This document shows positions 1 to 55,718 of a DNA stretch of 64,000 nucleotides, piece after piece. This DNA is from Magallana gigas (lineage: Eukaryota): contig NC_088861.1 in assembly GCF_963853765.1 (NCBI RefSeq), forward strand, positions 26,350,001-26,414,000. The letters run 5' to 3'. Position 1 is the stretch's first letter; every line of letters starts with the position of its first letter. A model generated the notes under the pieces. That model did no database searches. It was not told where the DNA came from and was given only the letters and a program-made list of their open reading frames with translations. The translations under genes were made by a program, and so were the position numbers.

Positions 1-67
1 AATCCAATGTTTACTCAACGAGAAAGTATACAGACATGATCAGATTCTACAAGCCATCCGGAGATCA

Positions 68-910
68 GTGAAAGGAGAAGCAGCCAACATCCTCATGAGA
101 CTCGGACCAGGAGCAACAATAGATAGCATCATTCAGAAAATGAACTCCATCTACGATACTATTGACAGTTGTCAAAGAATACTTGGACAATTCTATAGTG
201 CTCAACAAGAGGGAAATGAAAGTGTTTCTGACTGGGGATGTAGACTTGAACAAATCATAAATAAAGCTGTGATGCATGGTGAAGTTCGACATTCTCAAGT
301 TGACAATATGTTACGTCATGCATTCTGGGATGGACTTCGATCTGACTTGAAGGATATATCTGGATACATCCATGATAAAATTCTGTCATTTGATGAACTT
401 AGATCAGAACTAAGAGCAATTGAACAGGACCATGAGAGAAGAAAAGTAAACAAAGGAAAGAAAACTGGACCAACCGTTATGAGTGTTACTCACGAAGAAG
501 ATGAAGCTTCCGGTATGGATGACATCAAAGGGATGCTACTCAAATTAACAGCTGATGTGCAACAACTGAAAGATGATCGTCTACAGCAACCTCAGACTCC
601 ATATCATAGAAACTTCTTCCCTAGAAACAATGGAGCACGCTTTCAACATCCAGTTGTACCTCGTCCACAAGTACCCATACAACAACAACAGTTTGGACAA
701 CAACAACAGAGTTCATTCAGAGGTCAACAAGTAAATTACTTCCAAGCAAGACAACAAAGACCTGGACAAAGTTCAATGGGACCTAATGGACTACCTATAT
801 GTTATAGATGTGGACAGGAAGGACACGTTCAGTATGGATGTCGAGTGAGAACAGACCATGTCAGCAGACCGTTAAACTACAGAGGACTAGCATCGAGAGG
901 CAGACGCTAG
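68..910 (+). CDS. gag: Gypsy Gag (C-terminal part, CCHC zinc knuckle)
   Basis: CYRCGQEGHVQYGC = CX2CX4HX4C knuckle, Q-rich linker and a PNMA/Gag-like capsid region (FYSAQQEGNESVSDWGCRLE). The frame may continue upstream of 68. Confidence 0.9.
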   Translation: MKGEAANILMRLGPGATIDSIIQKMNSIYDTIDSCQRILGQFYSAQQEGNESVSDWGCRLEQIINKAVMHGEVRHSQVDNMLRHAFWDGLRSDLKDISGYIHDKILSFDELRSELRAIEQDHERRKVNKGKKTGPTVMSVTHEEDEASGMDDIKGMLLKLTADVQQLKDDRLQQPQTPYHRNFFPRNNGARFQHPVVPRPQVPIQQQQFGQQQQSSFRGQQVNYFQARQQRPGQSSMGPNGLPICYRCGQEGHVQYGCRVRTDHVSRPLNYRGLASRGRR

Positions 911-1851
911 GCCATGGTCAACCAATACAGAGCCTCACTGAATTACAACAACAAATACCAGGACTGATGGGAGAACAGAATATTATACACGTTAACATCA
1001 ATGGTGTAGATACCGCAGCTTTACTTGACACTGGAGCTACAGTGTGTACCATCAACACTGACTTTTACAATTCTTATCTACAAGATGTTCCACTTCATTC
1101 GTTGGACGATATTATTAAAATCAAATGTGCAGACGGAGAGAACATGCCATACTTAGGATATATCAAAGTAACTGTCAGCACTGAAGATATTAGTTCACCA
1201 AATACGAATGACTGTCTTATGTTAGTTGTACCGACAACTGATTACAGTAAGAAAGTTCCAGCTTTAATTGGTACAAACTTTATTAAGAATATCATGAACT
1301 GTGTGAAACAACAAAATGGCGAAAGATTTCTGCAAAATACCCAAATGAAAACACCATGGTACTTAGCATTTAGATGTGTCGCTCTACGAGAGAAAGAACT
1401 TAACCGCAATAGAAACATTCTAGGCATTGTTAAATCAGCAGAGACTTGTAGTATAATCATACCACCAAACAAGGAAGTGACAATATCTGGATTCATAGAT
1501 AGACAGATACCATACCAACCTGTTTGTGCAGTACTTCAGAAAACTAGTGGATCTGTTATACCAGATGACCTTGACATTTCTCCATCCTTAGTGTCATACA
1601 GATACAAAGACAACTATGAAGTAGAAGTCAACATCAGTAACATCACTACAAGAACTGTCAAGATACCGCCTAAAGCGTTGTTGTGTGAGCTACATCCTGT
1701 ACTTATTGAAGATGTTCAACCACAAACTACCTCAATAGATTCGGAAAATCAAGATGAATTTAGTGAAAATTTCATCAACCAATCTGACACAAAATCAACA
1801 GCAATATGGATACAGAATATTGGAACAAAACAAAGACATTTTCTCGACTAG
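871..1851 (+). CDS. Gypsy aspartic protease plus spacer domain, in the -1 frame relative to gag
   Basis: ORF 808..1851 contains ALLDTGATVC (retropepsin D-T-G) and LIGTNFI. It overlaps the gag end at the G TTA AAC heptamer. Confidence 0.88.
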   Translation, partial: VKLQRTSIERQTLGHGQPIQSLTELQQQIPGLMGEQNIIHVNINGVDTAALLDTGATVCTINTDFYNSYLQDVPLHSLDDIIKIKCADGENMPYLGYIKVTVSTEDISSPNTNDCLMLVVPTTDYSKKVPALIGTNFIKNIMNCVKQQNGERFLQNTQMKTPWYLAFRCVALREKELNRNRNILGIVKSAETCSIIIPPNKEVTISGFIDRQIPYQPVCAVLQKTSGSVIPDDLDISPSLVSYRYKDNYEVEVNISNITTRTVKIPPKALLCELHPVLIEDVQPQTTSIDSENQDEFSENFINQSDTKSTAIWIQNIGTKQRHFLD

Positions 1852-4800
1852 TGATACAGACATTGGTCACAGTAACAGAGTACAACACAAGATAAACATG
1901 AATGATGAAGTTCCTTTCAAGCAAAGACACAGGAGAATTCCGCCATCAATGTTCCAAGAAGTTCGAGACCATCTACAGCAATTATTAACAGCAGGAATCA
2001 TAAGAAGATCAGAATCACCATGGACTAGTAACGTCGCACTGTGTAGAAAGAAAAACGGTGATCTGCGCATGTGTGTCGATTATAGACAGTTAAACGCAAG
2101 AACAATTAAAGATGCATATGCACTTCCTAGAATAGAAGAAATATTAGACTCTCTTGGTGGAAACTCATACTTTTCTGTCCTCGATATGAAGAGCGGATAT
2201 CATCAAGTTGAATTGTTTGAAGATCATAAACAGAGAACAGCATTCACAGTAGGACCTTTGGGATTTTTCGAGTATAATCGCATGCCATTTGGTTTAGCTA
2301 ACGCCCCCGCAACGTATCAACGACTCATGGAAAACTGTCTAGGAGATCTAAATCTGAACATTTGTTTCATCTACCTTGATGATCTTATAGTATTTTCAAA
2401 AACTTTTGAAGAACACGTTAAAAGACTGCAAAGCATATTCCAATGTATCAGAGAGAACAATTTAAAACTTTCACCTAAAAAATGTCAATTTTTCATGGAT
2501 AAAGTGAAATACGTAGGTCACGTAGTTTCTAAAAATGGAATCGAACCAGATCCAGACAAGATTGAAAAAGTTGTGAATTGGCCTAGACCAACCAAACCAG
2601 ATGAAGTAAGACAGTTTGTTGGATTCGTTGGTTATTATCGACGTTTCATCAAAGACTTCACAAAGATTGCGAAACCATTAAATCAGTTGATGCCACCCAC
2701 TTCACAGAAGCGCCGAAAGAATTCCAAAGCACCGCCATCTTGGGAATGGGGAGGAGATCAAGAGAAATCATTTCAACAACTCAAAAGACATTTATCATCA
2801 CCACCAATATTAGGATTTCCAAATTACAATGAACCATTTGAACTTCATACAGACGCCTCTTTGTTAGGACTTGGCGCAGTTCTCTATCAGCTACAAGACA
2901 ACACAAAGAGAGTAATAGCTTATGCAAGTCGAGGTTTAAGCAAATCTGAAAAACGCTACCCTGTACATAAACTGGAATTTCTAGCCTTAAAATGGAGCAT
3001 TTGTGAAAAATTCAAAGACTATCTCTACGGACAAACCTTTAAAGTTTATACAGACAATAATCCTCTAACTTATGTTCTATCAACAGCACATCTTGATGCA
3101 ACAAGTCAACGATGGATAGCAAATTTAGCATCATTTAACTTCGATATTATTTATCGACCAGGAAAATCTAACAACGATGCAGATAGCTTAAGCCGTTTAC
3201 CTGGACTGATAAACCAAAACCATGAGAAAACTTGCAACATCTCAAGAGAAGCAATCCAATCCATTTGCAATGCCATTAATGTGTCGCCTTACGCAGAATG
3301 TCTTGCCATAGATTGTGAATCCATAAAAGAAGATTTGATTCAGCCAGAAATTGATGAAGAAATAGACATCACTACCGCCCAATACAATGATCCAATTTTG
3401 AAATTTTGGTTTCCATACATTAGGAGCAAAGTCAAACCATTCAGAAAAGAGATGCCAACATCTCCAGAACATATGACAATGTACAGAAATTTTGAGAAGC
3501 TGAAAATCATCAATGAAATCATATACAGAGAAACTCTTGTCCAGAAAAAGAAGAAGTATCAACTACTATTACCATCATCGTACATACCAACAATTCTGAA
3601 ATCACTACATGATGATATGGGTCACCCTGGGAGAGATAAAACAACATCATTGATACAAGACCGATTCTTCTGGCATAGAATGACAGTTGACATAGAGGAA
3701 TACATTAAAAAATGTCAAAGATGTATATTGAGAAAATCACCTGAAAATCACAAAGCACCTCTTGTAAACATCGAAACTTGTCAACCTTTGGAACTTTTGT
3801 GCTTAGATTTTCTTACCCTAGAAACATCTAAAGGAGGTTACGAAAATGTACTTGTCATCACCGACCATTTTACCAGATATGCACAAGCCATTCCAACAAG
3901 AAATCAAACCGCAAAAACAACAGCTGATGTTTTATTTAATAACTTTATCATCCATTATGGAATACCAAAGAAAATCCACACCGACCAAGGAGCAAATTTT
4001 GAAAGTAACCTTATCAAAGAACTATGTGAAATTACTGGTGTGATGAAATCAAGAACTACACCTTATCACCCAATGGGAAATGGACTCTGTGAAAGATTCA
4101 ATCGTACTTTAATCAAGATGTTAGGAACTCTACACCCAGAACAGAAGAAAGACTGGAAGAAACATATTGGTCCGATAGTCCACTGTTATAACTGTATGAA
4201 ACAATCTTCAACAGGACAGACCCCATTCTATCTTATGTTCGGCAGAGAACCCCGACTACCTATTGACTTAGCTTTTAAAACAAATCCATATGAAGATAAA
4301 CAGACAATGACTCATTACATAGAGAAACTTAAAGAAAGACTTGAAACATCCTACAATTTGGCACAACAGAATGTAAAACAATCTCAGGAAAAACAGAAAG
4401 ATTTTTATGATAGAAAAGTAAGAGGGGCAACATTCAAAGCAGGAGATAGAATTCTCGTCAAGATAGTGTCTTTCACTGGAAAACACAAAATTGCCGACAA
4501 ATGGGAGAGTGAACCGTACCTAGTACTTTCACAACCAAATCCTGATATTCCTGTTTATAGAGTCCAGCGAGAAGACAAATCAGGAAAAGTACGAACTTTG
4601 CATAGGAATTTATTACTTCCTTTGAATTTTATACCACCAGAAAGAATCAACATATTACCAAAGCCAGTACCAAGAAAGAGGAAATTGAAAAACAAATCAG
4701 AAGAGCCAACTCCAACTGAGCCTGTTAAATCAGACACAGACAGTGATGAAGACATGGACTTCCCACATGACGTCATACATGTTCCTCACACTGCTGCTGA

Positions 4801-5224
4801 GAAGATCTTGGGAGAAGATGTTGGTGACATGGATGCAGGTGATATTTTGGAACCTGTCCATGAACCACATATCGCAGAAGAGGACTTCTTACATGATGCA
4901 GATGCAGATGCAGATGCTGAAGAAGATGAAGAACAACAGCCGGCTGATCGAAACGCTATCCAGCATTTGGATACTAATGATGAGGAGGAAGATGCAGAAT
5001 CCCAGGAACTTGAAGATTCACCAGAACCTCAAGTCCGTAGATCATCAAGAGTTAGAAGAAAACCAACATGGATGAAGACAGGACAATTTCTGGTAAATCA
5101 ACACGTAGCAGAAACAAGTTGGAGAGACAAAGCTGAATTCCTTCTGAAAGTAACTAAAGAACCAGCTTTGAAAGACCATCGTGATAAACTATTGGATGGA
5201 CTTTTAAAAGTTATTGTGAAATAG
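1754..5224 (+). CDS. pol: Gypsy Pol: reverse transcriptase, RNase H, integrase
   Basis: RT (LRMCVDYRQLN, YLDDLIVFS), RNase H (LHTDAS, KLEFLALKW, TDNNPL), integrase HHCC (H..GHPG...CQRC), D-D-E (LDFL, HTDQG, LCERFNRT), GPY/F-like WESEPY and an acidic tail. No internal stop over 1156 aa. Confidence 0.95.
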   Translation: MNLVKISSTNLTQNQQQYGYRILEQNKDIFSTSDTDIGHSNRVQHKINMNDEVPFKQRHRRIPPSMFQEVRDHLQQLLTAGIIRRSESPWTSNVALCRKKNGDLRMCVDYRQLNARTIKDAYALPRIEEILDSLGGNSYFSVLDMKSGYHQVELFEDHKQRTAFTVGPLGFFEYNRMPFGLANAPATYQRLMENCLGDLNLNICFIYLDDLIVFSKTFEEHVKRLQSIFQCIRENNLKLSPKKCQFFMDKVKYVGHVVSKNGIEPDPDKIEKVVNWPRPTKPDEVRQFVGFVGYYRRFIKDFTKIAKPLNQLMPPTSQKRRKNSKAPPSWEWGGDQEKSFQQLKRHLSSPPILGFPNYNEPFELHTDASLLGLGAVLYQLQDNTKRVIAYASRGLSKSEKRYPVHKLEFLALKWSICEKFKDYLYGQTFKVYTDNNPLTYVLSTAHLDATSQRWIANLASFNFDIIYRPGKSNNDADSLSRLPGLINQNHEKTCNISREAIQSICNAINVSPYAECLAIDCESIKEDLIQPEIDEEIDITTAQYNDPILKFWFPYIRSKVKPFRKEMPTSPEHMTMYRNFEKLKIINEIIYRETLVQKKKKYQLLLPSSYIPTILKSLHDDMGHPGRDKTTSLIQDRFFWHRMTVDIEEYIKKCQRCILRKSPENHKAPLVNIETCQPLELLCLDFLTLETSKGGYENVLVITDHFTRYAQAIPTRNQTAKTTADVLFNNFIIHYGIPKKIHTDQGANFESNLIKELCEITGVMKSRTTPYHPMGNGLCERFNRTLIKMLGTLHPEQKKDWKKHIGPIVHCYNCMKQSSTGQTPFYLMFGREPRLPIDLAFKTNPYEDKQTMTHYIEKLKERLETSYNLAQQNVKQSQEKQKDFYDRKVRGATFKAGDRILVKIVSFTGKHKIADKWESEPYLVLSQPNPDIPVYRVQREDKSGKVRTLHRNLLLPLNFIPPERINILPKPVPRKRKLKNKSEEPTPTEPVKSDTDSDEDMDFPHDVIHVPHTAAEKILGEDVGDMDAGDILEPVHEPHIAEEDFLHDADADADAEEDEEQQPADRNAIQHLDTNDEEEDAESQELEDSPEPQVRRSSRVRRKPTWMKTGQFLVNQHVAETSWRDKAEFLLKVTKEPALKDHRDKLLDGLLKVIVK

Positions 5225-5285
5225 ACTTTCATATTCTTTTAAACCAGCAAAATGATGGGACATCATTTTCAAGCAGGGGGGAGAG

Positions 5286-6477
5286 TGTAATAGGGTGCAT
5301 TTTATGATAATTACATTCATGCATATTATTCATATTTCATCTTCAACATCATCATCATCATCCTATATTCCATATTTTACATGTACATATTTAGAAACAG
5401 ACTACTATCCCTATAACTCCCTGTCTTTTATGCATCTATCAAGTAATCATTATTTAATTACATATTCTAGTGGCTTCTGATATTTTATAGCCCTAAGTCA
5501 TTTCACCTGTATGGTCACTTACATACATGTGGACAAGATCAGGTGGTTTACTTAGCCAATAGTATGTTTTTATGATTTTTTCCCGCTTTAACTGAGTAGC
5601 CTTTGTGACAGACCAAGGCTAGGATTCTTATGAGTAAGACCTGATTTCTTTAAGAGACGATTTACCTTATTTATTTATTTCATCAACACATTTGAAGCAG
5701 TCAGTTATAGTAAGTGTTTTTATTTTTTGGTATTCTTGAACTTTAATATATAATTTAATAGATGATAATGATATTTTCTATTAATTGGTACATTTGGCTA
5801 ATTCTACTTGTTTGAGGTTATAATACCTTATTTATGAAAGAATGTATTTTATAAATTATTCCAGTAATTCATAGTTCTGATATCTAAGCTATAGTATCGC
5901 ATTTCTAATATATGTGAAAGGTTAGTTATTGTTACCATTATGATATTTAATACTTGTAGTTAGAGACTAGCTACCATTGTCAGAGTAATCTGCAGGATTG
6001 TGCATGAAACCTTGTTCCATAAACAGGTGATCGTTGCAAAGTTATATTTTTATATTTATTTTATGTATCTTGATAAAATGTAATCTACAAAGGAGTTACA
6101 TTGAAAGTATATGTTTTTATTTAATTAAATATTGATATTGATAAAGATGTAGAGCATATTTCTATATTTTTGTAAATTGTGTTCAAGGGCAGTAACTCTT
6201 CTTGACACTGAATTTATGATGCATTTTAATCAGAGTTATCCTTCTTTACAAATAGTTTGATTAGTGAACTCTGAGCATTAATGTATTTCACGAATATGTA
6301 TTTGAATATGATTGTATATTTTTATGCTGAAACTTATGTAAACATTGATCCTTTTATGCTGATATCTATGAATTATATTACAGGGTTTAAATCCTTTAAT
6401 CCTATCCATGTATCCGAATAAAATGAAGAACCCTTAAAGTGGACTTGTTTGTTTCTTTGGGACAACCCACTATCACA
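5286..6477 (+). repeat. 3' LTR (about 1.19 kb) of the Gypsy element
   Basis: Begins TGTAATAG right after the PPT AGGGGGGAGAG. Ends CTATCACA (7/8 inverted match to the start). AATAAA at 6417-6422. The 5' LTR is not in the window to confirm the boundary. Confidence 0.75.
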
Positions 6478-6559
6478 GTAACAAAATTGGAATTTATTAA
6501 TAAGTAAATTGGGACAATTTGGTTTATTTTTGAAATGGGGGTCCGTTTCTTAGACACAA

Positions 6560-6982: not shown

Positions 6983-9629
6983 GATATTGACAGATTGGCT
7001 AAACTTGGATTGTGCACGACTTCAAAGTCCATTTCTAAGAAACTTTCATCATGGGAAGCGTTTCTAGATTCAGAAATACTTGATATCAAGAAGAATTGGA
7101 GTGAAGGCGGAGAATTGAAATACCAATTGATAGGTGATAATTGGGACAAGAATATTATCCCCACATACCGCACCTCCCAAAGCAAAACCATTTCATTACA
7201 TCTCTTCAATGTGATAGCGGTTGTAGATAGGGTGATTCCAAGCACTTCATTGGAGGCAGATGAGGTGGCCCAGATGTCTGCAGTCAACTTTATTCCATCT
7301 TTAGATGATCAGGCTTTGCTCTTGCAAGAATTGACATTCCTAATGGCCACATCAGTAATTCAAAACTTGGACCAAATGCATGACATCTTTGAGCATATCT
7401 ATCCAAAGCATTTGAAACATAGATACAGTGACTTTTCTGGCATTAAAACAAAGCAGGTGTGTCTTAAAATCTTTACCATTTTTATTTGCTTACTTGAACA
7501 GAAAGCTTAATCAAATTTAAATCACATGTGACTGTCACTAATATTCTGTTTACAAACTTGTCAGATTTTTATTTGTTTCTACAACTACTGTGTCAACTTT
7601 AATAATTCTATTTTGGCACAAATATTCTTGATTTGGGTTTCAAGTTTATTGCAGACACCATGCCCTATTACATGAACATGAATTTTAAGTAGCGATTGCA
7701 AATTAGCGAAAATATGGTGGGGTCATACAAATTTACATACTATTTACTTTTAGATCTTGAAAAGCTTATAGTTTCCCTCTTGTCCAGTTCTCATTTTATT
7801 TTTATGAAGATATATCATAAGGTTTCTTATATTGCAGTACTCCATAGGATTGTTCGACTGCAACGAGAATAAGACTCAAGATGTTATCCAGTTATTGAAA
7901 GGCTTGACCGAGAAATATGTTCCCATGAAAGATGGAGAAATAGCAGAGGAAGTGTTTTTTGGAGGTTCAACTTTTTAGCAATTTTTTTTTATATATAATA
8001 ATATACAACATCAATTAGTTTATATCTGATTCATGTACATGTGCCACTATGTATACCCAATAAATAATCCACAGATGTAATTGTGTAATTGATTATTTTA
8101 ATGCATATTCTCATTCTTTTAGGAGATAGATTAACTGATGAGCGCATTCAAGGCGCACAGAATGCCATGTCAAATGCTGGGTCTGTAAAAGAAAGTCTCA
8201 AAGGATTCATTTCCAAAATAGAAGACTGGCACAGAATGATGAACTTTTTAGAGGTAACATATAATACATGGACTACAATTCTAATTTTTGGTGTTAATTA
8301 CATCTATGNNNNNNNNNNNNNNNNNNNNNNNNNNNNNNNNNNNNNNNNNNNNNNNNNNNNNNNNNNNNNNNNNNNNNNNNNNNNNNNNNNNNNNNNNNNN
8401 NNNNNNNNNNNNNNNNNNNNNNNNNNNNNNNNNNNNNNNNNNNNNNNNNNNNNNNGCTAACCTATAGTACAGCATCACAAACAGACAGAGGAACATTGTA
8501 TTATTTTCGGAATTTATTGAATGCTAGGAACGTGAAACATGATGTGAAAAACTCATTCCGAGCATATAAAATGCTTTACTATTCAGTATTTGATGCCATA
8601 TGCTGCACCATGTTTTTGAAAGAATTTGGCAAGAGTGAATTTGATTCACAAATTGATTTACCAGAAGGGTTTCAAGATGAAAGTGACGACAAGAAAATAA
8701 CGTGGATGAACGACTTGTGCCAAACGATAGTGAAAAAATGGTTTTTTGACAACAAAGATGACATATTTGAAGAGTTAAGAGCGATTTTGGAAGACCCTAA
8801 TCACCCTGAGAACTATTGGTTAGATACTGATGAAGATGGTCATTTCAAATGTCACTTTTGTGACAAATCGTATGCATCTGTGGGAAGCTTGAAAGCGCAT
8901 GAGACTATCAAACACCAGCATGTTGTGCCCACCAAAAAAAAAAAGTCTTCACCAGCACCATGTAAAGATACAGATGAATTATTTAACTACATTGTATTAG
9001 TGTTTAAACTTACAGCTTTACTAAAGAATCTTGATACAGCAATTGACATGGGAGATGGAGCAAGATCTGTGCGATCAGCTAAATATGAAATGCCGATATT
9101 TAATAAAACAAACAAACTGAAATATGTTATTGGATGTGTACAATTGGTCGACATGAGTGAAAATCCCCATACTCTTACCAGTCAACAGAGGGAGCGCTTT
9201 ATTGCCAACCGAACAATTAACCTGCAGGGAGGAAAAAACAACAATATCGCTTTGGACGAATATATTGAAATGATCAATCGTGACAGTAAGAACATTGTTT
9301 CAGGCCATCAAACCAAAGAGAACATTATTGAACGTTCCAAGCAATTTCCACATTTAATCAACTACGTTAAAAACTTCGATGTGATTTCTGAAATAAAAGG
9401 CCGAAAAGGGTTCCACAAACTTCCAAATTATAAAGTGGATGTTTCAAAGATAGCAAAAGAACTCTTGGAAATTAGTTGTTTAGAATATCAGCCAAAGAGA
9501 CAATTGCATTGTCGAGACCTTTCTGTGGACAAGGACCCGTACTCTAATTCGATCAAAGGATTGCCAATCATGATTCACAGACACAAACCGTCAACTCCAT
9601 TTAGTCGTTTGCGCAATAGAAAGTACTAA
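6983..9629 (+). CDS. Academ-type DDE transposase (DUF6589-like), multi-exon, 5' exon(s) missing
   Basis: GT-AG exons 6983-7456, 7838-7964, 8123-8253 and (gap)8457-9629 join in frame. Motifs IGDNWD, FGGDRLTDER, IEDWHRMMNFL, DRGTLYYFRN, NIALDEYIEMINR. An N-gap (8309-8455) hides one junction. Confidence 0.85.
8309..8455. other. Assembly gap (147 N)
   Basis: Run of N. Confidence 1.
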
Positions 9630-10264
9630 CTGCTTCCTTTTTAGGACAAATGCAACATTCCTTGATAATATATCAATTTTCTAATCTGTGATTTAATGTC
9701 CTTTCATCTGCACTTGCAAACAGTAATTGATTTATATTTCGAGACCAGATTTCAAGTTGGAATAAATTTTTGAACTTCTTCATAAACATGGGCTCAAACT
9801 TTACTTGAATATATAACGGTATTCTTTAAATATTAATTACAGGAATGGAAATGCATTCAATAATATTTCATTCTATATGCTCGGATATTTGTTTATATTT
9901 ATTTTAATGTTTAAATACCATTCAAACGTATACAGTAAAGCATAATCAAAACAAAGCTATTTTCATTCCTATATTGCAAACTTGACATATAGAAGAAAAC
10001 AAGCAAAATTGTCCAACCTTGGCACTTCATTGTAAATGTGTTTGTGAATGGAACAGTTCTTATCAGTCCTATTAAAATCAAACCTTTTATAATGTTGAAT
10101 TAATGAGAAAATAAACAGATATGTTCTTTATTCATTAACAGTAAAAACTTTTCAATCAGACTATTTAAGTTACTGTTCTTTCAAAGGAATTTTAAAGAGG
10201 TCCATATTATAAAAAAAAACCTGATAGATTCCTGTATCTTGTATTATCAGTTTCATTTAAAGTC

Positions 10265-10955
10265 TTTTTTTGGGAGTGGATTTTAATCAGCTCTCCTATG
10301 CAGTTACTCTGGCAAACCGGAAGTGAAACAGTGTTTCCACTTAAGCACAAATCATAACCGCTGGCAAGACTTAGTACTTTAAAATAATTGATAAAATTAG
10401 TTAAATACCTTGAAAATAGTCAGATTTTAAAAGGTACGAACAATTCAGGTAATTTTGTAGCAGTATGATTCAGAATAGAAGACTATATTGAACTCTGGCA
10501 TAGGAATTATTCCTACGCCAGAGTTCATTTTAGTCTCGTTCAACCAGACGCTCGGCTCACTGCTTGTCGGAGATTTGTCCGTAAATCTCTGACAAGCAGA
10601 GAGACTCTCTGCTTGTCGGATATTTATGGAGACAGCCGAGCGTCTGGTTAAACAAGACAAGAGTTTATTATTGCTAGGATCCTTAAATAATCAAGAATTA
10701 TTTCAATTACTGATACATGAGTACATAGCTTGATAAAATTAATTTTATCTACACGTATGAACACACACAACATGATTCCAATGGGGTATTTTTGTTGGAA
10801 AAACCCTGAAATTCATACCGGTATTAGAAAAATATGTGCGTAATTCTAATGGTGCCAAGAAACTACTTGCCATTCGAAATTACATATCATTGATTTTAAA
10901 TCAAATAGTAATCCATAAAATCAACTCCCATCCGTACTTACGTACTTTGATTTTT
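10265..10955 (+). mobile_element. Helentron-associated non-autonomous element (HINE/DINE-like), copy A
   Basis: 5' subTIR GGGAGTGGATTTT with adjacent partial inverted repeat; 3' subTIR AAAATCAACTCCC (10917-10929) plus short hairpin; T-rich flanks. Homologous to 55082-55950 and 57289-57800. Confidence 0.7.
10531..10660. mobile_element. Academ-type MITE (TAGTCTCG termini) nested in HINE copy A
   Basis: TIR TAGTCTCGTTCAACCAGACGCTCGGCT / AGCCGAGCGTCTGGTTAAACAAGACAA with a degenerate 10-bp TSD (GAGTTCATTT / GAGTTTATTA). Confidence 0.65.
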
Positions 10956-11077
10956 TACTGTCACTGTAAACAATGTTCAATTAATTTGGAGTTGTAAGAA
11001 AGAAATGAACATTAAAAATTGTAATTCTTTAATCAATAAATAAGATTTTAAAAACAGCTGCTGTCTTATAAACATTT

Positions 11078-13146
11078 TTAACTATCAGACAAACTAAAAT
11101 CCATGTCTAGTTCATCAACATTCCAATCATAATCAATAGTATCATCACTGTCACTTGAGCAATTCAAACATTCATTATTAAACAATTTTTCAATATCTAA
11201 CACAGAACAATGATTGCATTTGCACAATTCAGCACATAAATCACAGCATGTATGACATGTTTCGTCAGTAAATTTAAGTAAGTCAGTGTCGGATATGAAA
11301 TTTTTCAACAATTCTTTTCGGCGGCAATTCTGACAAGAAATAAAAGTTTTCACTTCTTTGTCTACATTTCGCAAATGGTGGGAATTGTAAATAATTAAAG
11401 CAACCGATGGTAAACCATCCCTTCCAACTCTGCCAACTGCTTGCACGAGATCTACAACTGATCGTGGAGGTCCATACAGAACTACTGAATTGCAATTCAG
11501 AACATCTACTCCCATTCCAAGAGCTAAAGTAGCAATCACTATTAGTACACAACTGTCTTTATTTCGTAATGCTGACACTATTTTCTCTTTTTTGTCCTCA
11601 GGAGTCTCTGAATGAAACATTTCAACTAGATTTGTACAGTTCTCAAGTTCTTTAACAACATGATTGTATAACTTAGAAACGTCTGATATGGAGTTGCAGT
11701 AAACAAGAGTTCTTGGAAATGATTCCCCAAGTAAACCAAGTGCATCTACTAGCCAGTAAATTGCAGTTTCAATTTCACTACTCACTTTCTTCACTACCAA
11801 TTTGATATTTGGCTTATTTGGGGAAATAGAGATCTGGGTAGTGTCATTTTCTCTTAATCCCATGACTTTCATGACACGTTTTTTTATCTTGTTGGTGCAT
11901 GTAGCACTGAGGGCCAGAACTGGTGCCGATGGAAACAGGGATCTCAGTTCTCCTACATGGCGGAACCACTTCCTAAAAACAAGATATTCATCGGAGTCGT
12001 CGTTCCCTCCCCTAAAAAAAAAATAGAACAAATCTTACTTAAAGAAACTATGATCCTTACCAGTCCTGTCTGTGTGACAAAGTCTCCCTCTATTATTGAT
12101 AATGAATAGAAACTGTTAATATAGGAGGGGTAAGGTTTAAGGATAAGGTTTTTCACAATATATTAAATACATGTACTTTTAAGAAGGGTTTTCCACTCTT
12201 CTTTCATCTATTTACATTTTTAATAAATTGAAAACTGTTTCATTCACTGAAAGTAGACTTTCCTAGTAATTTGTGTATTGTTTCATAATTTTGCACAATT
12301 TTAACTTTTACAATAATAAGATTGTTGGCAAATAATGGATGCAAAGAATTTAAAATCACCCTTTTTACAGTATCTGTTAAATAATTAAATCTTACCATGT
12401 TGCAATTGTGTGAAACTCATCTATCACAATCATGCCCACGTTGAAATTTTGTAACAGCTGTCGGAATTTTGAATCTCCAACAAGAGATTCAGGCGAAGCA
12501 AATAAAATGTCGAATTCTCCTCTGTTTATCAACTCATCCATCTCATGACTGCTACCTTTTGTAAAAGAACGGTTTTATCATCTTGTGTGGTCTGATCGTA
12601 TTTTTTGTCTTAACAGTTAATGAGATGCTGGTATTTTTTTTCTTAAAGTGATAGAAAATATGATAAAATTTTTAGACTAAACATATATAGCATATAGACT
12701 TGGTTAGACTTCAATAATGACGTCAATTACCACTATAAATCGCCACTGTGAACGTCAGAGAAATTTCGGAATAAATAGATGAGCATGCTGGTGCATGGTG
12801 TAATGTTTTATGACAAGTTAGGAAATTGAATCTTTAAATTACCTTTGTATGCAACACGTAGTTCTGAAATACTGTGAAGTCGCTCGACCTGGTCTTTCAT
12901 CAGGGCAAGTAAAGGACAACACACGATTATACGCTCAGTCTGTGGGCCTAGACGTCCTAGTTCCCGAACAACTGGGAGGTAAATTTGATACGGTAAAGAT
13001 TTACCGAATCCCGTTGGCAACACGGCAATACAGTCCTTTTTCGCTAGCATAGATTGCAGCATGTGGTATTGTTCAGTTTTCAAACTCTCCACTGAAAATT
13101 TTACACAAACGTTCTTTATCACTTCGTCCATGTTTACCTCCGCCAT
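11078..13146 (-). CDS. RecQ-like SF2 helicase of AcademH (3 exons, about 465 aa)
   Basis: Exons 13146-12843, 12555-12396 and 12011-11078 splice in frame via GT-AG. Motif I LPTGFGKS, Ia PLLALMKDQ, II DEFH, III LSAT, V ATLALGMGVD, VI QAVGRVGRDG, and a C-terminal Zn site (CRRKELL...CCDLC). Confidence 0.92.
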
Positions 13147-13358
13147 TTTCTAATACTTTCCAAGTTGGATTTCAGAGACAAAATTTGATTGGTTAGAAAA
13201 GTTCATAACCTGTAATTAGCATCCGATTAAATATTCATCGATAAAGGTCACTCGCATGTGAACCCTTATGCAGCTTCTTCAGACCTTCCACGCGACCATC
13301 AAAATAAAGGAGCTAGTGGAAGGTTTGATTTTAATCAGACTGCATTCGCCTACGACTA

Positions 13359-13662
13359 CCAGAAAATAGTGGTGTTTGATTATACTAGAGAAAGTAAAGA
13401 GCACATTAACTATGACCTACTGGAGGATCTCAAGAATGGGTCAATATGGTCACCCAAGTACCAGTCAGCGGTCAAATCCTGGAAGTTTAATGTCAAGGTG
13501 ATATGCTTTGCCAACTTCCCCCCTAAGTTCGAAGCCCTCAGTCACGACAGATGGTATGTTCTGGAGCTCAAGGACGGGAAACTCAGGAGGACCAGAATTC
13601 CCCAACCCCAAGCTCCACCCACCCCGTATGTTGTGGAATCATCGGCGTGCATAATAGTCTGA
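13359..13662 (+). pseudogene. rep: CRESS-DNA virus-like Rep, C-terminal SF3 helicase fragment (nanovirus/alphasatellite-like); endogenous viral element
   Basis: KIVVFDYTRE (Walker B), NYDLLEDLKNGSIWSPKYQS (B'), VICFAN (motif C), LSHDRW (Arg finger), with no stops or frameshifts. Walker A and HUH motifs are absent. Confidence 0.85.
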
Positions 13663-13698
13663 ACTAACATGGCCGCCGAAACACGAGGTATTAATACG

Positions 13699-13872
13699 CC
13701 GAGCCCGATAGATATTTACATACCGAGCCCGAACTATTTATAGCATACCGTGCCCGATATATTTACCTGGTGACCGGTTACCGGTGCCCCGCTTTAAAAG
13801 CCGAGCGCATAACCAAAGCTAGGATAATGCGCTCGGCTGTAAGGGAGGTCACCATGGGGCACTTCCGGTCAC
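13699..13872. promoter_or_regulatory. Putative rolling-circle origin: 3 iteron-like repeats plus nested stem-loop
   Basis: CCG(A/T)GCCCGA...TATTTA at 13699, 13723, 13748. 12-bp perfect stem AGCCGAGCGCAT (13799-13810) / ATGCGCTCGGCT (13827-13838). Outer inverted pairs GTGCCCC/GGGGCAC and GTGACCGG/CCGGTCAC. Confidence 0.6.
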
Positions 13873-14449
13873 GTGATTTAATGGCGATAGGGATTAGACG
13901 TGTTTGAATTGGGCTCCGAGATTTTCACCATGTAAGTTATTATTAGTGGTTTTTTTCGGCCTCCCCTGGTTTGACTCTGAGGGTGTTCTTCATATTTGCG
14001 CAGAGTCCAGGTAGGAGAAGGTGTGTTAATTAATTTGTCTGAAGGATTTCAAGATCTGGTATGTTTGGTTTTAGTCTATATAGTCTTATATTACAGTTGT
14101 TGAGTTATTAAGATTTGGATTTAATTATAGCTTATTTATTAAAAATTAACAAATTGCACGGTTAATTCATTTACAACAGCAGTGCACCTATCTGGCCTTA
14201 AATTCCATAATTTTGGTTAGTCAGTATTTCAATATATTAATTTGTAAATAAATGTGTAGATAACTCATTTTTTAATATTCAAAATAGGTTCAGCAAAGAT
14301 CACTTTGAATTGAATTCATATGCAAATATATAATGAAATATACAAGTGTTGTATAGTGTATTAGTATATATATACATGTATCACAGTTTACATTCATATA
14401 ATAAAGCACCATCTTCATATAACAAAGCACCATCTAACCATCTAAGCAG

Positions 14450-15140
14450 ATGCCCGACGAAAATCCTTCTTCATCCAGAATGGGTGGTGGAGATCTAAAT
14501 GGTAAAAAGTCGAAACTTAAATATACTGGTAGTTCAAGTAATACTTCAACGCCCAAAAAGCAAAAACTGGACAGGGGTAAAAAAGAAAACCTGGAACATT
14601 CTGCCAAATCTGAGTTAAAAGAAAGTCCAGGAAATCTACTTCAATGCCCAAAAGGCAAACACTTGTCAAGGGTCCGGACGGAAAAGAAAAAGTGGAACAG
14701 CCACAGAAGTTGCCTACACCTGATATAAACGAGTCATCTTTCCTACCCACAAATTTCAAATTCCCTGTATCAAGTTTAGGGAGTCAGAAAAGGTCTTTAC
14801 AGGGATATCGGTATAAGAAATGGAGATGGCTCTATTATGATGTGTCCTTAGATGCAGCATTTTGATTCTGTTTTACAAAAGCTTATGAGGGTGGTATGCT
14901 GTCCAGTAACAATAAGGAGATGATATTTTTGTCAAAAGGATTCTGTATTGGATAAAAGCCACAATCCGATTCGAAGAACATGCCAACAGCAAATATCTTA
15001 AAAAGAAGAAGCTGAGAGATCGTTTACACTTCCAAATGTAATGAAGGATGTCGGTGAATCTCTCAGTAAACAGCACCCGGAACTGAAAAAAAGGCAATAG
15101 AGATTGTTTCCTGGAGAAAATGCTTGGGAGTTAAAAATTT
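14450..15140 (+). pseudogene. Degraded hAT-type transposase N-terminus (TTF/ZMYM1-like zinc finger)
   Basis: Across stops and frameshifts: QP...FKFP...QKRSLQ..YKKWRWLYYDVSLDAAF*FCFTKA...SKGF / W.KATIRFEEHANS / DVGESLSKQH. Confidence 0.7.
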
Positions 15141-15769
15141 CTAGCAAAACAAAATATTTCAATCAGGGGGAAAGAGGAAGGAAAGAGGAAGGTCCAATGA
15201 TAATACGTGATAAATGAAAAACATACAATGCAGGATTGAGGCCAGGGCATTCGATACCGATGTGAAAACATGCCTTCAAATGGCAATATCGTAAAAAAGA
15301 TACAAAATATGCATATGAACGGTTTATAATTGATATAGGGTGAAAGAAGGACAATTCGTTGAAACATGATAATAAATAACAACGATTGATGAATAATGAT
15401 GAGAGTTGTAAGTGATACGTGAATTAATATTTACAGTTCTTCAACCTAATTTCATGACATAGCCCCACACGGCAGAAAATATTTGTCCCGGGTGAATAAA
15501 GACAGAAAGACAATGGTACTATCACTTACAGCTATACAAGATATGTTATCATTGATATACACATATTTTGAACATGTTAGTAAATGACGAATTCTGTATC
15601 ATGGTTACATGTATTTAATGTACATCATAATTAAATCTTATTGTCAATATATATCAACAATAATTATGCAACCACAGTCACTGTTTATAGTTCCATATGA
15701 ATCTGGCAAGCAAAAAAATAATCAAGTCCCTTTACAGTCACAGTTTTCATTTTGAATACTGTTTTTTTT

Positions 15770-19510: not shown

Positions 19511-21001
19511 AGGGCAGCTGGCACACATCATTGTCTTTTGTCTAAGAAAATAAATGAAAGCTAATAACAGTGTAAAATCAGAATGACAAAAAATCTCGTT
19601 CCCTTAGAATCCATTTTCGTTACCATTTGTTTATTGCAGTACTTAATATTATCAATGTTTTCTGTTTTTATATGTTTATCATAGTCATACCTGATCCCTG
19701 TACTTCTTTATGAATTTTCTTTATTTACAGTTTTAAACTGGGCATAATATGGCACATCCATGATAACTTCTACATTATGAAATACTATATAGTAAATGTT
19801 CTCATTATATATTAATGAAATTTTAAGACAACTAATACACATGCAGTATAATTATTCTCCCGACATACGGATCACTTTAAATTAGATTGGTCTTACTATA
19901 CATATATCTAATCTATGTCATATATCTGAACATTTCAACAGTCTTAATATACAAAAATCTTGAAGCATTAAATATATCTATTCAATAACAGAATAAATGA
20001 CAAAATTCATTCTGTAATACAAATTGATGATAAAACATAAATTTACCTGTCCGTTCAGTTCTTCCGCGGATCTGAAGGAAGTTATGCCTCTAACATATAT
20101 CGTTTAATCCATGCACAACACTCGGCGGCCTTTCTTCATCTGGCCCCTCACATCGTGACAAATGGCTTATAGTAAATCTTTACCAAATAAATAATATTAA
20201 ACAATATAATATAAGCACTTAGCACAGGCACCTGACGTTATGTATTAAGTAATTAATTCAATAGATCTAGTAATTCACAATGACACCCATCTTATCTCAA
20301 AATGTCGAATCAAGTGAATCTTTTGCTTTAAATTCATCGGTAAAATTATTTTTGCGATCCTCTCCGTCTCCCGAGTTTACAACTAACAACCGATGCAACC
20401 AACACGGTGCATTACATCTGTCATTAATACAAACACTCCTCAATTTGTATCTGCTGCCTTAGATATGCGATAAGTAACTAATTAAAAGCGGTGCTAGCAC
20501 GATAAAGAACCCTTTAACAACGGTGGCAAGTATATTAAATATATTATTAACCGGGCTCTGTTGAAAGCAGAGTCCTGGCTGTAGGCAGGCAAATCACCAA
20601 TGTTACTATAAATAGCACAACTTCAAAAGTAAACAAAAATTCAAACAGCGTCAAAGTAAAAGCTTCCGCTATACCAAATAGTTACACAAAGAGTCACGTT
20701 TTGTCAACAGTGTTGGTTTTTTTGCTGTTTCTTTTTTTTAATTTCGAGAGAATTGTCTTTTTTAGTTTTCTTATTAATAACGTGTTTTAAAAACAATACT
20801 GCATTTTTGACATATACAATGCGTATGAATTTCCATGAACTACTTTGATGCGCGTGAAAGAAATGGGATTGAATATATAACGCTTATTGCGAAATTCAAG
20901 GCAGCAACTGTGGTACTTTTTTCTACCAGAGAAACATATTTTTGTTGATAGCCGCTTACAAAATTTGGTCGTTCTCTGATGCTTTGCTGACATTAAAAGC
21001 A

Positions 21002-21034
<33 letters not shown>

Positions 21035-21313
21035 GTGTGTGTGTGACAGAGAGAGAGAATTTTCTTCAGTTTCCACTACACAATAATATTATGCATTAAG
21101 ACACACCAAAAGAGCCCGGCTTTCAGTACTTTGATTAGTTATTCAGGATCAATCAAGTGTACGGAGATTTACCCCGGGTTGTATTCCATATACACCATGA
21201 GGCCGCAGGGTGTTCAAGTACAAATGTTTCCTGAAATCCCGGGTCCGAAAAACAAAAATTCACTCTTAAGCAATGCTGCTCGATGTTAACTCTCGGTCGA
21301 CCAGATTTTGTTG
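19511..21313 (+). repeat. About 1.8-kb direct repeat, copy 1
   Basis: Co-linear with 25110-26828 from CATCATTGTCTTTTGT to GGTCGACCAGATTTTGTTG. Contains (TG)n(AG)n at 21003-21058. Confidence 0.9.
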
Positions 21314-24165: not shown

Positions 24166-25109
24166 CCAAGCCCCTTGTGGTTACACTATCCTGGCTGTGC
24201 CAGTGAATGAATCCAGTTGAGTCCTCCGACTCAATAGAAATAGTCAAATCACTAGTAGAACAACTAAATATTGTACTATGTCCAATTCATATTAGTATAT
24301 ATATATACGCCTAATTATATCTACTTTGGTTGCATAATACATTTATAATCTATACAAAGTATTAAATTTGATGTTTCCATGGGAATGATATACCTGCTAT
24401 CAACTCTTGAACGTCTTCTAACATATCCCTTTCTTTAAGCCATGTAATAACACCATCAGCGCCCACGTCTTCGAAACTTCTCATCCTCTCACGAGTCTCA
24501 GCCATTTTGATAACCCTGATTGGCACAAATCGGATTTGGCGCTAAACGGAAGTGTGTTGCGGAGGAGAAAAGCCAAAGTAATTCGTATTTAGATTAGTCG
24601 CGCAGTTATAACACGAACGTAAATAAAAGTTTCTAACCATCTCAGAAATTCGAAAATATAAGACAATATATCTTCATTCGTAGAATTTTATCCTATTTTT
24701 CTCTTTTTACAATCTGAAGAATGCACAACTACATTCACGTCTCTGGTACAACTTAATAAATCATGTTAAGCCTTATCATAACAAATATCAGTAAAGGAAT
24801 TACTTAGTAAATCATGTTAAGTATATGATAGTTCTTTATCATAACAAGTATCAGTAAAGGAATTACTTAGTAAATCATGTTTTGTTTTTAGTAAATCATG
24901 TCCCTTTTTTCATAATAATAAACAGTAAAAAGGAATCAGTTAGTAAAACATTTCTACACATTAAGTAAATGTAAGTAAAATATTTTTATTTAGTAATTGA
25001 CATGAAGTTCAGTAATTGTTTTAAATTTGTAAGTAAATGTTAAGTAATTACTTATTAATATGATTTTAAGTAAAAAATGATTACTAAGTAAAACTTTTTT
25101 TTAGAGTTA

Positions 25110-26530
25110 GGGCTGCTGGCATGCATCATTGTCTTTTGTTTAAGAAAATAAATGAAAGCTAATAACACTATAAAATCAGAATGACAAAAAATCTCGTCCC
25201 CTTAGAATCCATTTTCGTTATAATTTGTTTATTGCAGTACTTAATATTATCAATGTTTTCTGTTTTTATATGTTTATCATAGTCATACCTGATCCCTGTA
25301 CTTCTTTATGAAATAATTTTCTTTATTTACAATTTTAAAACTGGGCATAATATGGCTCATCCATGAATTTTTAAGACAACTGACACACGTGCAGTATTAT
25401 TCTCCCGACATACGGATCACTTTAAATTAGATTGGTCTTACTATACATGTAGCTAATCTATGTCATATATCTGAACATTTCAACAGTCTTAATATACAAA
25501 AATCTTGAAGCATTAAATATATCTATTCAATAACAGAATAAATGACAAAATTCATTCTGTAATACAAATTAATGATAAAGCATAAATTTACCTATTCGTT
25601 CAGTTCTTCTGCGGATCTGAAGGAAGTTATGCCTCTAACATATATCGTTTAATCCATGCACAACACTCGGCGGCCTTTCATCATCTGACCCCTCACATTG
25701 TGACCAATCGCTTGTAGTAATTCTTTACAAAATAAATAATATTAAACAATATCAACAGTATAAGCACTGAGCACAGGCACCTGACGTTATTAATAAAGTA
25801 ATTAATTCAATAGATCTAGTAATTCACAATGACACCCATCTTATCTCAAAATGTCGAATCAAGTGAATCCATCGGTAAAATTATTTTTGCGACCTCTCCG
25901 TCTCCCGAGTTTACAACCGATGCAACCAACACGGTGCATTACATCTGTCATTAATACAAATCACTCCTCAATTTGTATAAGCTGCCTTAGATATGCGATA
26001 AGTAACTAATTAAAAGCGGTGCTCGCACGATAAAGAACCCTTTAACAACGGTGGCAAAAGAAGTATATTAAATATATTATTAACCGGGCTCTGTTGAAAG
26101 CAGAGTCCTGGCTGTAGGCAGGCAAATCACCAATGTTACTATAAATAGCACAACTTCAAAAGTAAACAAAAAATCAAACAGCGTCAAAGTAAAAGCTTCC
26201 GCTATACCAAATAGTTACACAAAGAGTCACGTTTTATCAAAAGTGTTGTGGTTTTTTTTTGGTTTCTTTTTTTTTTATTTCGAGAGAATTGTCAATCTTT
26301 TTTAGTTTTCTTATTAATAACATGTTTTAAAAACAAGACTATGCATTTTTGACACATACAATATGAATTTCCATGAACTACTTTGATGCACGTTGAAGAA
26401 ATGGGATTGAATATATAACGCTTATTGCAAAATTCAAGGCAGCAACTGTGGAACTTTTTTCTACCAGACAGACATATTTCTGTTTATTGCCGCTTACAAA
26501 ATTTGGTCGTTTTCTGACGCTTTGCTGACA

Positions 26531-26579
<49 letters not shown>

Positions 26580-26828
26580 TCATTCTCCACTACACAATAA
26601 TATTATGCATTAAGACACACCAAAAGAGCCCGGCTTTCAGTACTTTGATTAGTTATTCAGGATCAATCAAGTGTACGGGGATTTACCCCGGGTTGTATTC
26701 CATATTCACCATGAGGCCGCAGGGTGTTCATGTACAAATGTTTTCAGAATTCCCGGGTCAGAAAAACAAAAATTCTCTCTTTAGCAATGCTGCTCGATGT
26801 TAACTCTCGGTCGACCAGATTTTGTTGG
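25110..26828 (+). repeat. About 1.7-kb direct repeat, copy 2
   Basis: Co-linear with 19511-21313. Carries (AG)n at 26537-26571 in place of (TG)n(AG)n. Confidence 0.9.
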
Positions 26829-28629
26829 TTAGAATAGTATTAAGTTATACATACATGTAACCATAATGTGTCTGTTTATTTATTCAGCAAAGAGAATATG
26901 ACCAAATGTGGTGGAATACTGGGGCAATTTCTACCTCAAAGCCGAATAGGATCTGGATTTTAGTCAAATTGCAACTTTACTTTCAACTTCTCCCTGTATA
27001 ACCCTTTCAACTTTTCCCCGTAGGGTCGTCTACTCATACATCACTATATTAGATGTGTGCTATATTTGTTGTACATGTATCTCCTTTCAAAATGAATTAA
27101 ATGTTTATTCCCTACCTGTGTTTTCGTTTCTGATGCACATTTATTCAATATGAGATAACTGCATATTACCAGATAGATCTACATGTACAATGTGTAGAGT
27201 TTTTGCTAACTTATCCAGACAGAAAGGGATCTAATTTTGGGGTATGGCAGCATAAAAGATTATTGACTGAGAAACTTCCTCCAGCAAAAACTTCCTCAGG
27301 TATCCTCTATAACATTTTCAATATCATTTTCCCTTTCCTTCAGATTTTTGTGATTATACACATTCATGGCAGAAAAGAGGTTATTAAGCCCCGTGCTTTC
27401 CCCACAATTCAAGCATGCACTATTCCTTTAAAGTATTCATTTGTTAAAAAGCGTATTGATATATGCATTAAACACCGGAAAAGAATTACCCAATGTTTTT
27501 TACATACTTTTTACTGATTGAAAGGTTAATTATAATTAAAATATATATTAGAGAAAACTTATTCAGATGTAAAATTGAACCACATTACATTCTACATTCT
27601 TTTATTCATTATTAGGTTAACAACTGAGATTTTGGTGAAGACAGATGCAAAAAGCTTAATGCTCTGTGGAAATTGAAAAGCTAAGTTTTTCCCCATTGTA
27701 AATTTCCAAAGGTGAAAATTAAATAGACAAGGTACATATTAAATGGAAACGCCTTCTATCTATCACTGATATGATAATGTAGTATTAATAAAATTGGCAA
27801 AACGTGATGGGAACGACAACTTGAAACGACTGAAATTTACACTCTCATAAATTCACACATGAAATGATATCTGTATAACAACATTTCTATTGATATCAAA
27901 AGTTCCCCGTCCTCTGATAATATTTCCTGTGCAAACTGTTTTCCCAATGTACACTTTGTAATGAAACCACAATTTGAACACACTTTTCTTGACACTCCTG
28001 CTGGTTTAACACCCAGTTAATTGCCCTAATGCAGGGATTTGCTACATGAACTACACTTGTTAAATTGTTTTGCTGAAAACTCTGATCAGATATCTTTGGC
28101 TAAATCACTCGTGATAAACAAGTTGAAGTGATTCATATGTTTATAAATACATGTAATTATTTTTTTAAAGGCCCATTTGATTGAAACTTGTATAACCTTG
28201 TATAGCTTTCTTTATAAAAAATAATTTCAAACTCTTTATGAAACTAAACAATGACCAAAAAATTTGATAGATTCTTGATATTTTACATGATATTTGTTGC
28301 TTTCATTTAAAATGTCGCGCATTGAAACTCAAAACAGCAATTTTTTTTTACTTTACCACCCTGTCTGTTGGCTGTATTAAAGACATGCTACAAAGATTAT
28401 CACATGATCTTTCCTCCAAGCTGTTCTGTAACAAGCGAACGCATGCATACTAATCTGTAAGTTTCATAGACTGTCATGCTTTGACCACGGCAACCGTAGT
28501 ATTTTCTAGCAGTCATCTTCGAAGGTATTCTAAAAGATTGTCTTGTAAGCACAAATTATGCAATCGTACAAGCCCTGAAACGTGATTTTACACCAGTTGC
28601 ACGATTGGGTTCGGTTTGCTTTTTTAACT

Positions 28630-28750
28630 GTACAATTCACTTTGTGAACGGTGCGGTTCATTTTGTGAACGGCACAGTTCGTTTTGTGAAGGGTACGGTT
28701 TACTTTGTGAACGGGAGGGTTCGTTTTGTGAACGGTACGATTCGCTTTCT
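28630..28750. repeat. 21-bp minisatellite (about 5.5 units, core TTTGTGAACGG)
   Basis: Units such as CATTTTGTGAACGGCACAGTT / CGTTTTGTGAAGGGTACGGTT. Confidence 0.9.
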
Positions 28751-55354: not shown

Positions 55355-55443
55355 TAGTCTCGTTCAACTCGACGCTCGGCTGTCTCCGTAAATCCTTGTC
55401 GGAGATAAACGTTGTCAGCCGAGCGTTTGGTTGAACGAGACTA
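55355..55443. mobile_element. Academ-type MITE with 10-bp TSD
   Basis: GAATTCAATA|TAGTCTCGTTCAAC ... GTTGAACGAGACTA|GAGTTCAATA. Confidence 0.8.
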
Positions 55444-55499
55444 GAGTTCAATATTGCTTGGATCCATACAATTTTCGAGAAATATTTCTATTACTGATA

Positions 55500-55718
55500 C
55501 TGTGGAATCATTAAATTTCGTGGGGGCCAATTTTCGTGGATTGCTTAAATTTTACAGGTTCGTGGGGACGGAATTTCGTGTATTCTTATATATCTACAAA
55601 AGGAAATATGACTTTATTACCCTAATTTATCAGTTCGTGGAGGATGTTATTTCGTGGATGAGAGGTACCCAGGAATTCCACGAAAATTGAGCCACCACGA
55701 AATCTAATGATTCCACAG
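55500..55718. mobile_element. Tc1/mariner-like MITE with TA TSD nested in HINE copy B
   Basis: Perfect TIR TA|CTGTGGAATCATTA ... TAATGATTCCACAG|TA. Confidence 0.85.

Follow-up and report, generated by a model that had tools for sequence, protein, structure and literature searches.

A probable rolling-circle origin in the Rep promoter region of an endogenised large CressRep replicon

Within a 64-kb stretch of AT-rich, animal-like nuclear DNA (hereafter the window), a fragment of a Rep gene lies beside a compact block of direct repeats and a hairpin. This arrangement raises the question of whether the block is a rolling-circle origin, what kind of replicon it served, and how it came to lie in a chromosome. 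The features that bear on this question are, from left to right:

13270..13342, minus strand: AcademH-like transposon terminus inside the Rep gene; it reads CAGTCTGA inward and has an internal hairpin (13279-13328), and Rep homology begins at its edge
13343..13351, plus strand: putative 9-bp target-site duplication left by the AcademH-like element, deduced from the C-terminus of the relative P0166
13343..13638, plus strand: 3' piece of a zinc-finger/HUH/SF3 Rep gene (Walker B, motif C and Arg finger region), 98 stop-free codons
13639..13698, plus strand: junction and putative start of the control region, with a small imperfect hairpin (13642-13679), a YY1-like motif (13668) and a degenerate extra repeat unit (13676-13698)
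13699..13765, plus strand: three direct repeats of 24-25-bp period (0 of 500 shuffles), each with a GC core, CCG[A/T]GCCCGA, and an AT-rich half; candidate iterons for Rep binding, or else promoter repeats
13799..13838, no strand: candidate origin hairpin, a 16-nt loop closed by a perfect 12-bp stem (13799-13810/13827-13838; 2 of 2000 shuffles) whose arms hold the CCGAGC repeat core
13861..13886, plus strand: predicted promoter-like motifs, by motif match: ETS-like ACTTCCGG (13861), E-box-like TCACGTGA (13869) and YY1-like (13879)
13898..13969, plus strand: Rep 5' leader, followed by a putative split start codon (AT at 13930-31, with the splice donor GTAAGT at 13932) and ~35 nt from the 5' end of the Rep intron, by codon match to the relative P0106

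An earlier note had described the repeats and the hairpin, and all of the motifs it listed are present where it placed them. Copies of CCG[A/T]GCCCGA start at 13699, 13723 and 13748, a spacing of 24 and 25, and none of 500 dinucleotide shuffles of 13640-13940 reproduced the triple. The 12-bp stem with its 16-nt loop and shared repeat core likewise exceeds chance, as a perfect stem of at least 12 bp arose in 2 of 2000 shuffles. Exact copies of the repeat core occur in the 64-kb window only within the block; three lone one-mismatch matches lie elsewhere, against 0.81 expected in all. Perfect stems of at least 10 bp number 15 in the window, so the hairpin by itself is unremarkable in such DNA. 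The fold of 13690-13880 gave a z of -2.86. The control block has a CpG observed/expected ratio of 1.27, compared to 0.77 for the window, and its GC content of 49% is similar to that of the Rep piece; to the right of the block it is 27%. Two elements of a CRESS-type origin are therefore found here: an extrudable stem-loop, in the form of the perfect 12-bp stem, and iterated sequences beside it, the candidate iterons sharing their core with the stem.

No conserved nonanucleotide was found in the loop when both strands were scored. The earlier note had proposed a nonamer and a nick position at TAGGATAAT, which matches the CRESS nonamer at six of nine positions, but its final two bases belong to the stem. 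The best match lying fully in the loop reaches 3/9 on the plus strand and 5/9 on the minus strand, and the final nine loop bases score 0/9 and 1/9, respectively. A match of at least 6/9 on either strand occurs in about 29% of 20,000 random 20-mers from the window. We also scored the nine perfect hairpins with loops of at least 11 nt (the other six of the 15, with shorter loops, were excluded), and three of them reached 6/9, the candidate origin hairpin among them. The proposed nonamer is thus at chance level. A perfect 10-bp palindrome, GTATTAATAC, lies at 13688-13697 between the degenerate and the first full repeat; it scores 7/9 as a nonamer and was rejected as lying outside any stem.

The same note had drawn the hairpin as the centre of a nested cruciform. 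The inverted pairs do exist (13784-90/13856-62, 13770-77/13865-72 and 13768-75/13847-54), but the arms outside the central stem are weak. When the flanks were shuffled round an unchanged central stem, 12 of 1000 shuffles folded equally well when the span was tight round the arms, and 152 of 1000 did so with 20 extra bases on each side. The right-hand outer arms overlap the ETS-like and E-box-like motifs, which number two and one, respectively, in the 64 kb. ETS, E-box and YY1 are the factors and sites to which we take the motifs at 13861, 13869, 13879 and 13668 to belong.

To which Rep does the block belong? The Rep piece is 94.9% identical to residues 519-616 of the 661-residue relative P0001 and 87-95% identical to all eight close relatives tested. 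Its match to only these residues means that the gene is cut on both sides: it is broken at the 5' side by a transposon insertion and ends 45 codons short of the family C-terminus, so that the block does not lie 3' of a natural Rep stop. Searching the window by tblastn with the first 20 relatives revealed no further Rep piece, the missing C-terminal 45 residues included. The Rep piece itself retrieved 20 longer proteins, 18 of which form one family without precomputed Pfam domains, and a PDB sequence search with it gave a single weak, unrelated match.

Full-length Reps of this family, at 550-680 residues, combine an SF3 helicase with an HUH nickase that has one tyrosine, and as many as five C2HC zinc fingers are present in addition. 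None of the 37 aligned relatives departs from H341, H343, Y384 and K387, and Walker A, Walker B and motif C are found in the family. The model of P0001 (mean pLDDT 78.7) matched the nickases of PCV2 Rep (Z 11.3, rmsd 2.6 over 95 residues), FBNYV (Z 11.0) and geminiviruses (also ~11), as well as CRESS Reps in BFVD, while the helicase fold resembles SV40 LT, papillomavirus E1 and AAV Rep. The HUH, YxxK and SF3 signatures expected of the Rep cognate to a CRESS-type origin are thus present in the relatives; the nickase part of the local Rep lies outside the window.

The family is large. Among 50%-cluster representatives, an E cut-off of 1e-30 gave 60 proteins and one of 1e-3 gave 5540, and the close lineages are numerous, being 74-81% identical over their full length with clusters of up to 106 members. 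The ESM Atlas returned three nameless clusters at 0.91-0.92, followed by CRESS Rep clusters at 0.76-0.78. Many nameless Reps of ~280-660 residues (P0029-P0059) have the same unusual nickase, often with at least one N-terminal zinc finger; Reps of this type make up a large lineage, and the clam adomaviruses form one of its branches. A tblastn search of plasmids with P0001 found no match, and one of phages found a single distant Rep (26%) in Pinkberry virus, which is uninformative. Besides this Rep (L001:4208-5101), the 19.6-kb Pinkberry virus record encodes a sulfhydryl oxidase and has another Rep annotation.

The native position of the block is revealed by P0106. With C read as T, this protein agrees with P0166 at 155 of 156 positions (113 identical, 42 explained by the conversion and 1 other), a pattern as in bisulfite-treated DNA; P0072 is likewise converted. 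P0106 extends 31 residues upstream beyond P0166, and its first 24 codons fit positions 13898-13969 of the window: all 24 consecutive codons are compatible with its N-terminus, 22 of them exactly with C read as T, while the next best run of P0106 codons anywhere in the window is 4. As 13898-13969 is the leader that precedes a relative's Rep N-terminus, the block lies natively 5' of the Rep start. The earlier note had put it directly downstream of Rep; this is correct for the window, but Rep is truncated there and the native order is the reverse. Judged by P0106, the block therefore has the intergenic position beside the Rep 5' end that is expected of a CRESS-type origin, and the stem of the candidate hairpin ends 92 nt 5' of the putative start codon.

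Circoviruses and nanoviruses have their origin and promoter just upstream of the Rep start, and a stem-loop there is accompanied by repeated motifs both beside and within the stem, as here; the modelled nickase fold of P0001 also matches theirs. On the other hand, the block has no NANTATTAC-type nonamer, its loop is 16 nt long, its repeat units measure 24-25 bp and its Rep is about twice as long.

The leader contains a further element. At 13926-13937 the window reads CACC-AT/GTAAGT, and P0008, P0009 and P0166 have an acceptor-like F-rich tract and an R where intron-less relatives carry the initiator M. These sequences are consistent with an intron of ~127 nt that apparently splits the Rep ATG. 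Introns seem to sit at several lineage-specific places in the Rep family. Ends or starts resembling read-through of more introns were seen in P0049, P0054, P0170, P0172 and P0013-P0015.

Taken together, these data give good support to the view that the block is the native Rep promoter region of an endogenised large CressRep replicon. That the block was integrated together with Rep, as the earlier note had held, is supported by the leader match to P0106, the single copy of the block in the window and the intact nickase in the family.

Could the block be a promoter only? In this case the repeats would bind host factors, as the 21-bp promoter repeats of SV40 do, the stem would have a regulatory role or belong to the leader, and replication would start elsewhere in the parent genome. 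The ETS-, E-box- and YY1-like motifs directly 5' of the start codon, the loop without a nonamer, repeat units longer than is usual in CRESS iterons, and breakpoints that fall outside the loop are all consistent with this possibility. Against it stands the repeat core carried by both arms of the perfect stem. The block also appears to stand on both sides of Rep, as it would in a circle obliged to keep its origin, and the cognate Rep retains a nickase of a type that, according to passages of PMC8780604, requires a hairpin or single-stranded DNA substrate. We consider it unlikely that the block is only a promoter; it is probably the rolling-circle origin of the endogenised replicon as well.

That the block would stand on both sides of Rep is deduced by way of the transposon that interrupts the gene. 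This AcademH-like element has a DEAD/Helicase_C (RecQ-like) gene on the minus strand at 11078-13149 and a DUF6589 ORF on the plus strand at 8457-9629. DUF6589 is linked to AcademH transposases. An isolated 23-nt inverted partner (21/23) of the terminus at 13320-13342 lies within the element at 10064-10086. P0166 (555 residues) ends a few residues past the insertion position, and its last residues are those of the 9-bp duplication and the inverted terminus; of the duplication lengths from 2 to 12, nine alone (one of 11) predicts this C-terminus. P0166 therefore represents the far side of this insertion, to the left of the window edge. Two other boundaries were rejected: an Academ end at CTA 13315, as the inverted partner and P0166 put the terminus at 13342, and a splice acceptor at 13336 before the Rep piece, as this stretch is the transposon terminus. 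Passages of PMC10799480 link DEAD/Helicase_C domains to AcademH, and passages of PMC10045372 give its target-site duplications as 9 or 10 bp. The left neighbour thus has the transposase, the SF2 helicase and, judging by P0166, the duplication of an AcademH element; it is a later intruder and not the source of the block.

If P0166 and P0106 come from this locus, the leader would flank Rep at either end and make the insert terminally redundant. The insert would then consist of the control region, a shortened Rep and the control region again, a slightly over-unit-length piece of a deleted circle with a period of ~2.3 kb. Its right end lies at ~13964-13970, ~35 nt into the intron. An imperfect 18-bp inverted repeat (13962-14018) straddles this end. 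The earlier note had suggested looking for breakpoints at a nick site; neither of the visible breakpoints of this copy, 13638/13639 and ~13964-13970, lies within the hairpin loop, and Rep-catalysed insertion at the nick is therefore not indicated.

It could be argued that Rep and block come from distinct viral fragments that were joined in error, since the assembly has a gap at ~8309-8455 and the 13638/13639 junction is seen in one assembly alone. However, the adjacent transposon junction is independently present in P0166, and the Rep piece and the block are co-oriented and of one lineage. We regard a chimera as very unlikely.

The replicon arrived first, then the AcademH-like element and lastly, probably, a Gypsy-type element inside the latter. 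The open frames of P0166 and the Rep piece suggest that the insertion is recent. The Gypsy-type LTR retrotransposon occupies 1-6483 (RT, RNase H and integrase matches), with a nearly open pol at 1739-5224, a purine tract ahead of 5286 and, at ~5286 to 6483, what is probably the 3' LTR, and it appears nested in the AcademH-like element.

Several other repeats were noted in the window. A decayed coding-like stretch at 14438-15430 is reminiscent of hAT/TTF-zinc-finger transposases, with no supporting Pfam match. A duplication of ~1.8 kb (19511-21313 and 25109-26827, ~5.5-kb spacing) is 93-97% identical. A 21-bp minisatellite lies at 28608-28748 and a 161-bp tandem array of 3.6 copies at 29237-29792; the latter seems to resemble an oyster satellite/HINE repeat, which would point to a bivalve host. 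Inverted arms of 348 bp, 97% complementary (42175-42522/45534-45881), stand around 3 kb, and the element they enclose is a probable non-autonomous DNA transposon. A repeat family has copies at 10267-10960, 55082-55950 and 57282-57786, with internal inverted arms that start TAGTCTCGTTCAAC; the copy at 10267-10960 sits between both AcademH-like genes.

This last family has a bearing on whether the hairpin is part of an ordinary MITE that by chance lies beside Rep, since two 9-mers of the stem, AGCCGAGCG and CGCTCGGCT, are also inverted arms in it, at 10549/10634 and 55373/55417. In these copies, however, the order of the arms is reversed and the flanks gave no blastn alignment, and the Rep leader and intron begin 60 nt to the right of the hairpin. 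The MITE explanation is disfavoured, and we hold it to be extremely improbable. The block is single-copy within the 64-kb window, the stretch in which dispersed copies unlinked to Rep, a mark of Helitron/HINE elements, were looked for. An Rfam scan of 13100-14500, blastn of 13640-13969 against phages and plasmids, and a protein search with the 70-residue frame spanning the block gave no match, and two scans of genome contigs, covering 37 and 214 candidates, found no related locus. Words from the repeats and the stem, when sought in the first 400 nt of supplement sequences of PMC11071296, occurred only in an unrelated parvovirus end.

What was the parent replicon? Six CressRep 'XenRess' adomaviruses of clams, circular and 8.6-12.2 kb in size, are described in passages of Buck et al. 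2024 (PMC11071296), where a CressRep adomavirus is defined by an SF3 helicase, a circular 9-20-kb genome and candidate Penton and Cah genes. Among the best 150 relatives, P0104 and P0077 are near-identical by eye to the CressReps of Adoma6119 and Adoma5353. The nickase/oligomerisation region of P0001 matches four of four such adomavirus-like proteins at E 1e-14 to 1e-18, compared to E 0.006 or worse for the nickase region against 10 classic CRESS Reps (the first 10 of 29). In a two-domain tree of 80 of the 82 rows (two without a Walker A pattern were left out), one branch with SH-aLRT 100 parts 52 family rows from 28 classic Reps, a split that is partly built in because the family rows were chosen by similarity to P0001. 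In the poorly resolved helicase-only tree of all 82 rows, the P0001 subclade did not group with the adomavirus-like rows; both were quick trees, with no bootstrap. The longest contigs of 29 family proteins measure 10.0-10.7 kb in six cases, none being longer, and less than 8 kb in 23. The SF3 helicase of the definition is present here, and no virion gene (Penton or Cah) was recognised by eye among the window's 28 ORFs of at least 100 residues. More tentatively, we infer that the parent was a virus of ~10 kb akin to the clam adomaviruses of the CressRep ('XenRess') type; it is likely to have been adomavirus-like, if not necessarily an adomavirus itself. The small CRESS virus envisaged by the earlier note is not supported, the Rep being of the 550-680-residue zinc-finger form with a nickase of the CressRep adomavirus lineage.

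Alternatively, the parent could have been a genome-resident transposon mobilised by its HUH and SF3 Rep, with the block as its replication or transposition origin. The many close lineages, the big clusters and the frameshifted-looking and C-to-T-converted copies (P0106 and P0072) suggest that these sequences are frequently present in host DNA, and several relatives have intron-like ends. In contrast, the visible right end lies inside the intron, away from the hairpin or any nick in it, published circular viruses that have virion genes belong to the nickase lineage, and contig sizes cluster at 10.0-10.7 kb. A transposon parent is decidedly improbable on these data, and the adomavirus-like virus is preferred.

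Helitrons have a Y2 Rep fused to a Pif1-type helicase; the single catalytic tyrosine and the SF3 helicase here do not match those of a Helitron/HINE. Replitrons (Craig 2023, PMC10288648), as described in passages of that paper, resemble this system in having a Y1 Rep nickase akin to CRESS Reps, in residing in eukaryotic genomes and in having a hairpin near one end, but they have no helicase and possess short terminal direct repeats, whereas the Rep here has an SF3 helicase. The CressRep 'XenRess' adomaviruses/xenomaviruses of lucinid clams, as far as passages of PMC11071296 and Welch et al. (10.1101/341131) describe them, have an HUH and SF3 Rep with the same unusual nickase signature. Their zinc-finger sequence precedes the nickase as it does here, in a separate Ziftr ORF there and fused in P0104, and they are mollusc-associated like this family, with genomes of 8.6-12.2 kb against longest contigs of 10.0-10.7 kb. 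On the other hand, the identity of this Rep to theirs is only ~32%, it forms a separate subclade and the helicase domains do not group. Unlike those viruses, this family has C2HC fingers fused to Rep, an apparent start-codon intron and an integrated state, and neither virion genes nor circularity were seen for it. Passages of the same two papers contain no description of a CressRep adomavirus origin, and the phrase 'origin of replication' is absent from the portions seen of 10.1101/341131 and PMC13696692. In the literature searched, we found neither an origin nor an integrated copy of these viruses, although the genome maps of Buck et al. may annotate one.

How might the block have worked? Rep would recognise the 24-25-bp repeats together with the copies of their core in the stem; having opened the hairpin, it would cut a single strand within or close to the loop, at a non-canonical sequence. 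Our guess is that the zinc fingers read the long repeats. Host factors at the ETS-like and E-box-like sites may drive the Rep transcript from the same region, and Rep would be made only after splicing of the intron inside its start codon. An over-unit-length piece of a deleted circle would then have been taken up by the chromosome through ordinary end joining, as neither visible end lies in the loop. The earlier note's idea of an integrated cis-acting origin thus stands in that the block and Rep stem from the same replicon, but the nonamer nick site, the nested cruciform, the geometry and the small-CRESS parent that it attached to this idea are not supported.

It could be speculated further that the parents are widespread genome-resident rolling-circle elements of molluscs with a zinc-finger/Y1-HUH/SF3 Rep and splicing-gated expression, either HUH transposons that would join Helitrons and Replitrons as the third kind in eukaryotes or a routinely integrated virus, and that the block is their origin with a new nick sequence. 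At present we think this rather improbable.

CressRep adomaviruses have been discussed as a link between the small single-stranded DNA CRESS viruses and polyoma- and papilloma-like viruses. With a control region of 330 bp assigned to a defined Rep family, it becomes possible to test whether replication in this lineage proceeds by CRESS-like nicking and rolling, and at which sequence the cut is made. The integrated copy, nested under host transposons, ties the lineage to the animal germ line.
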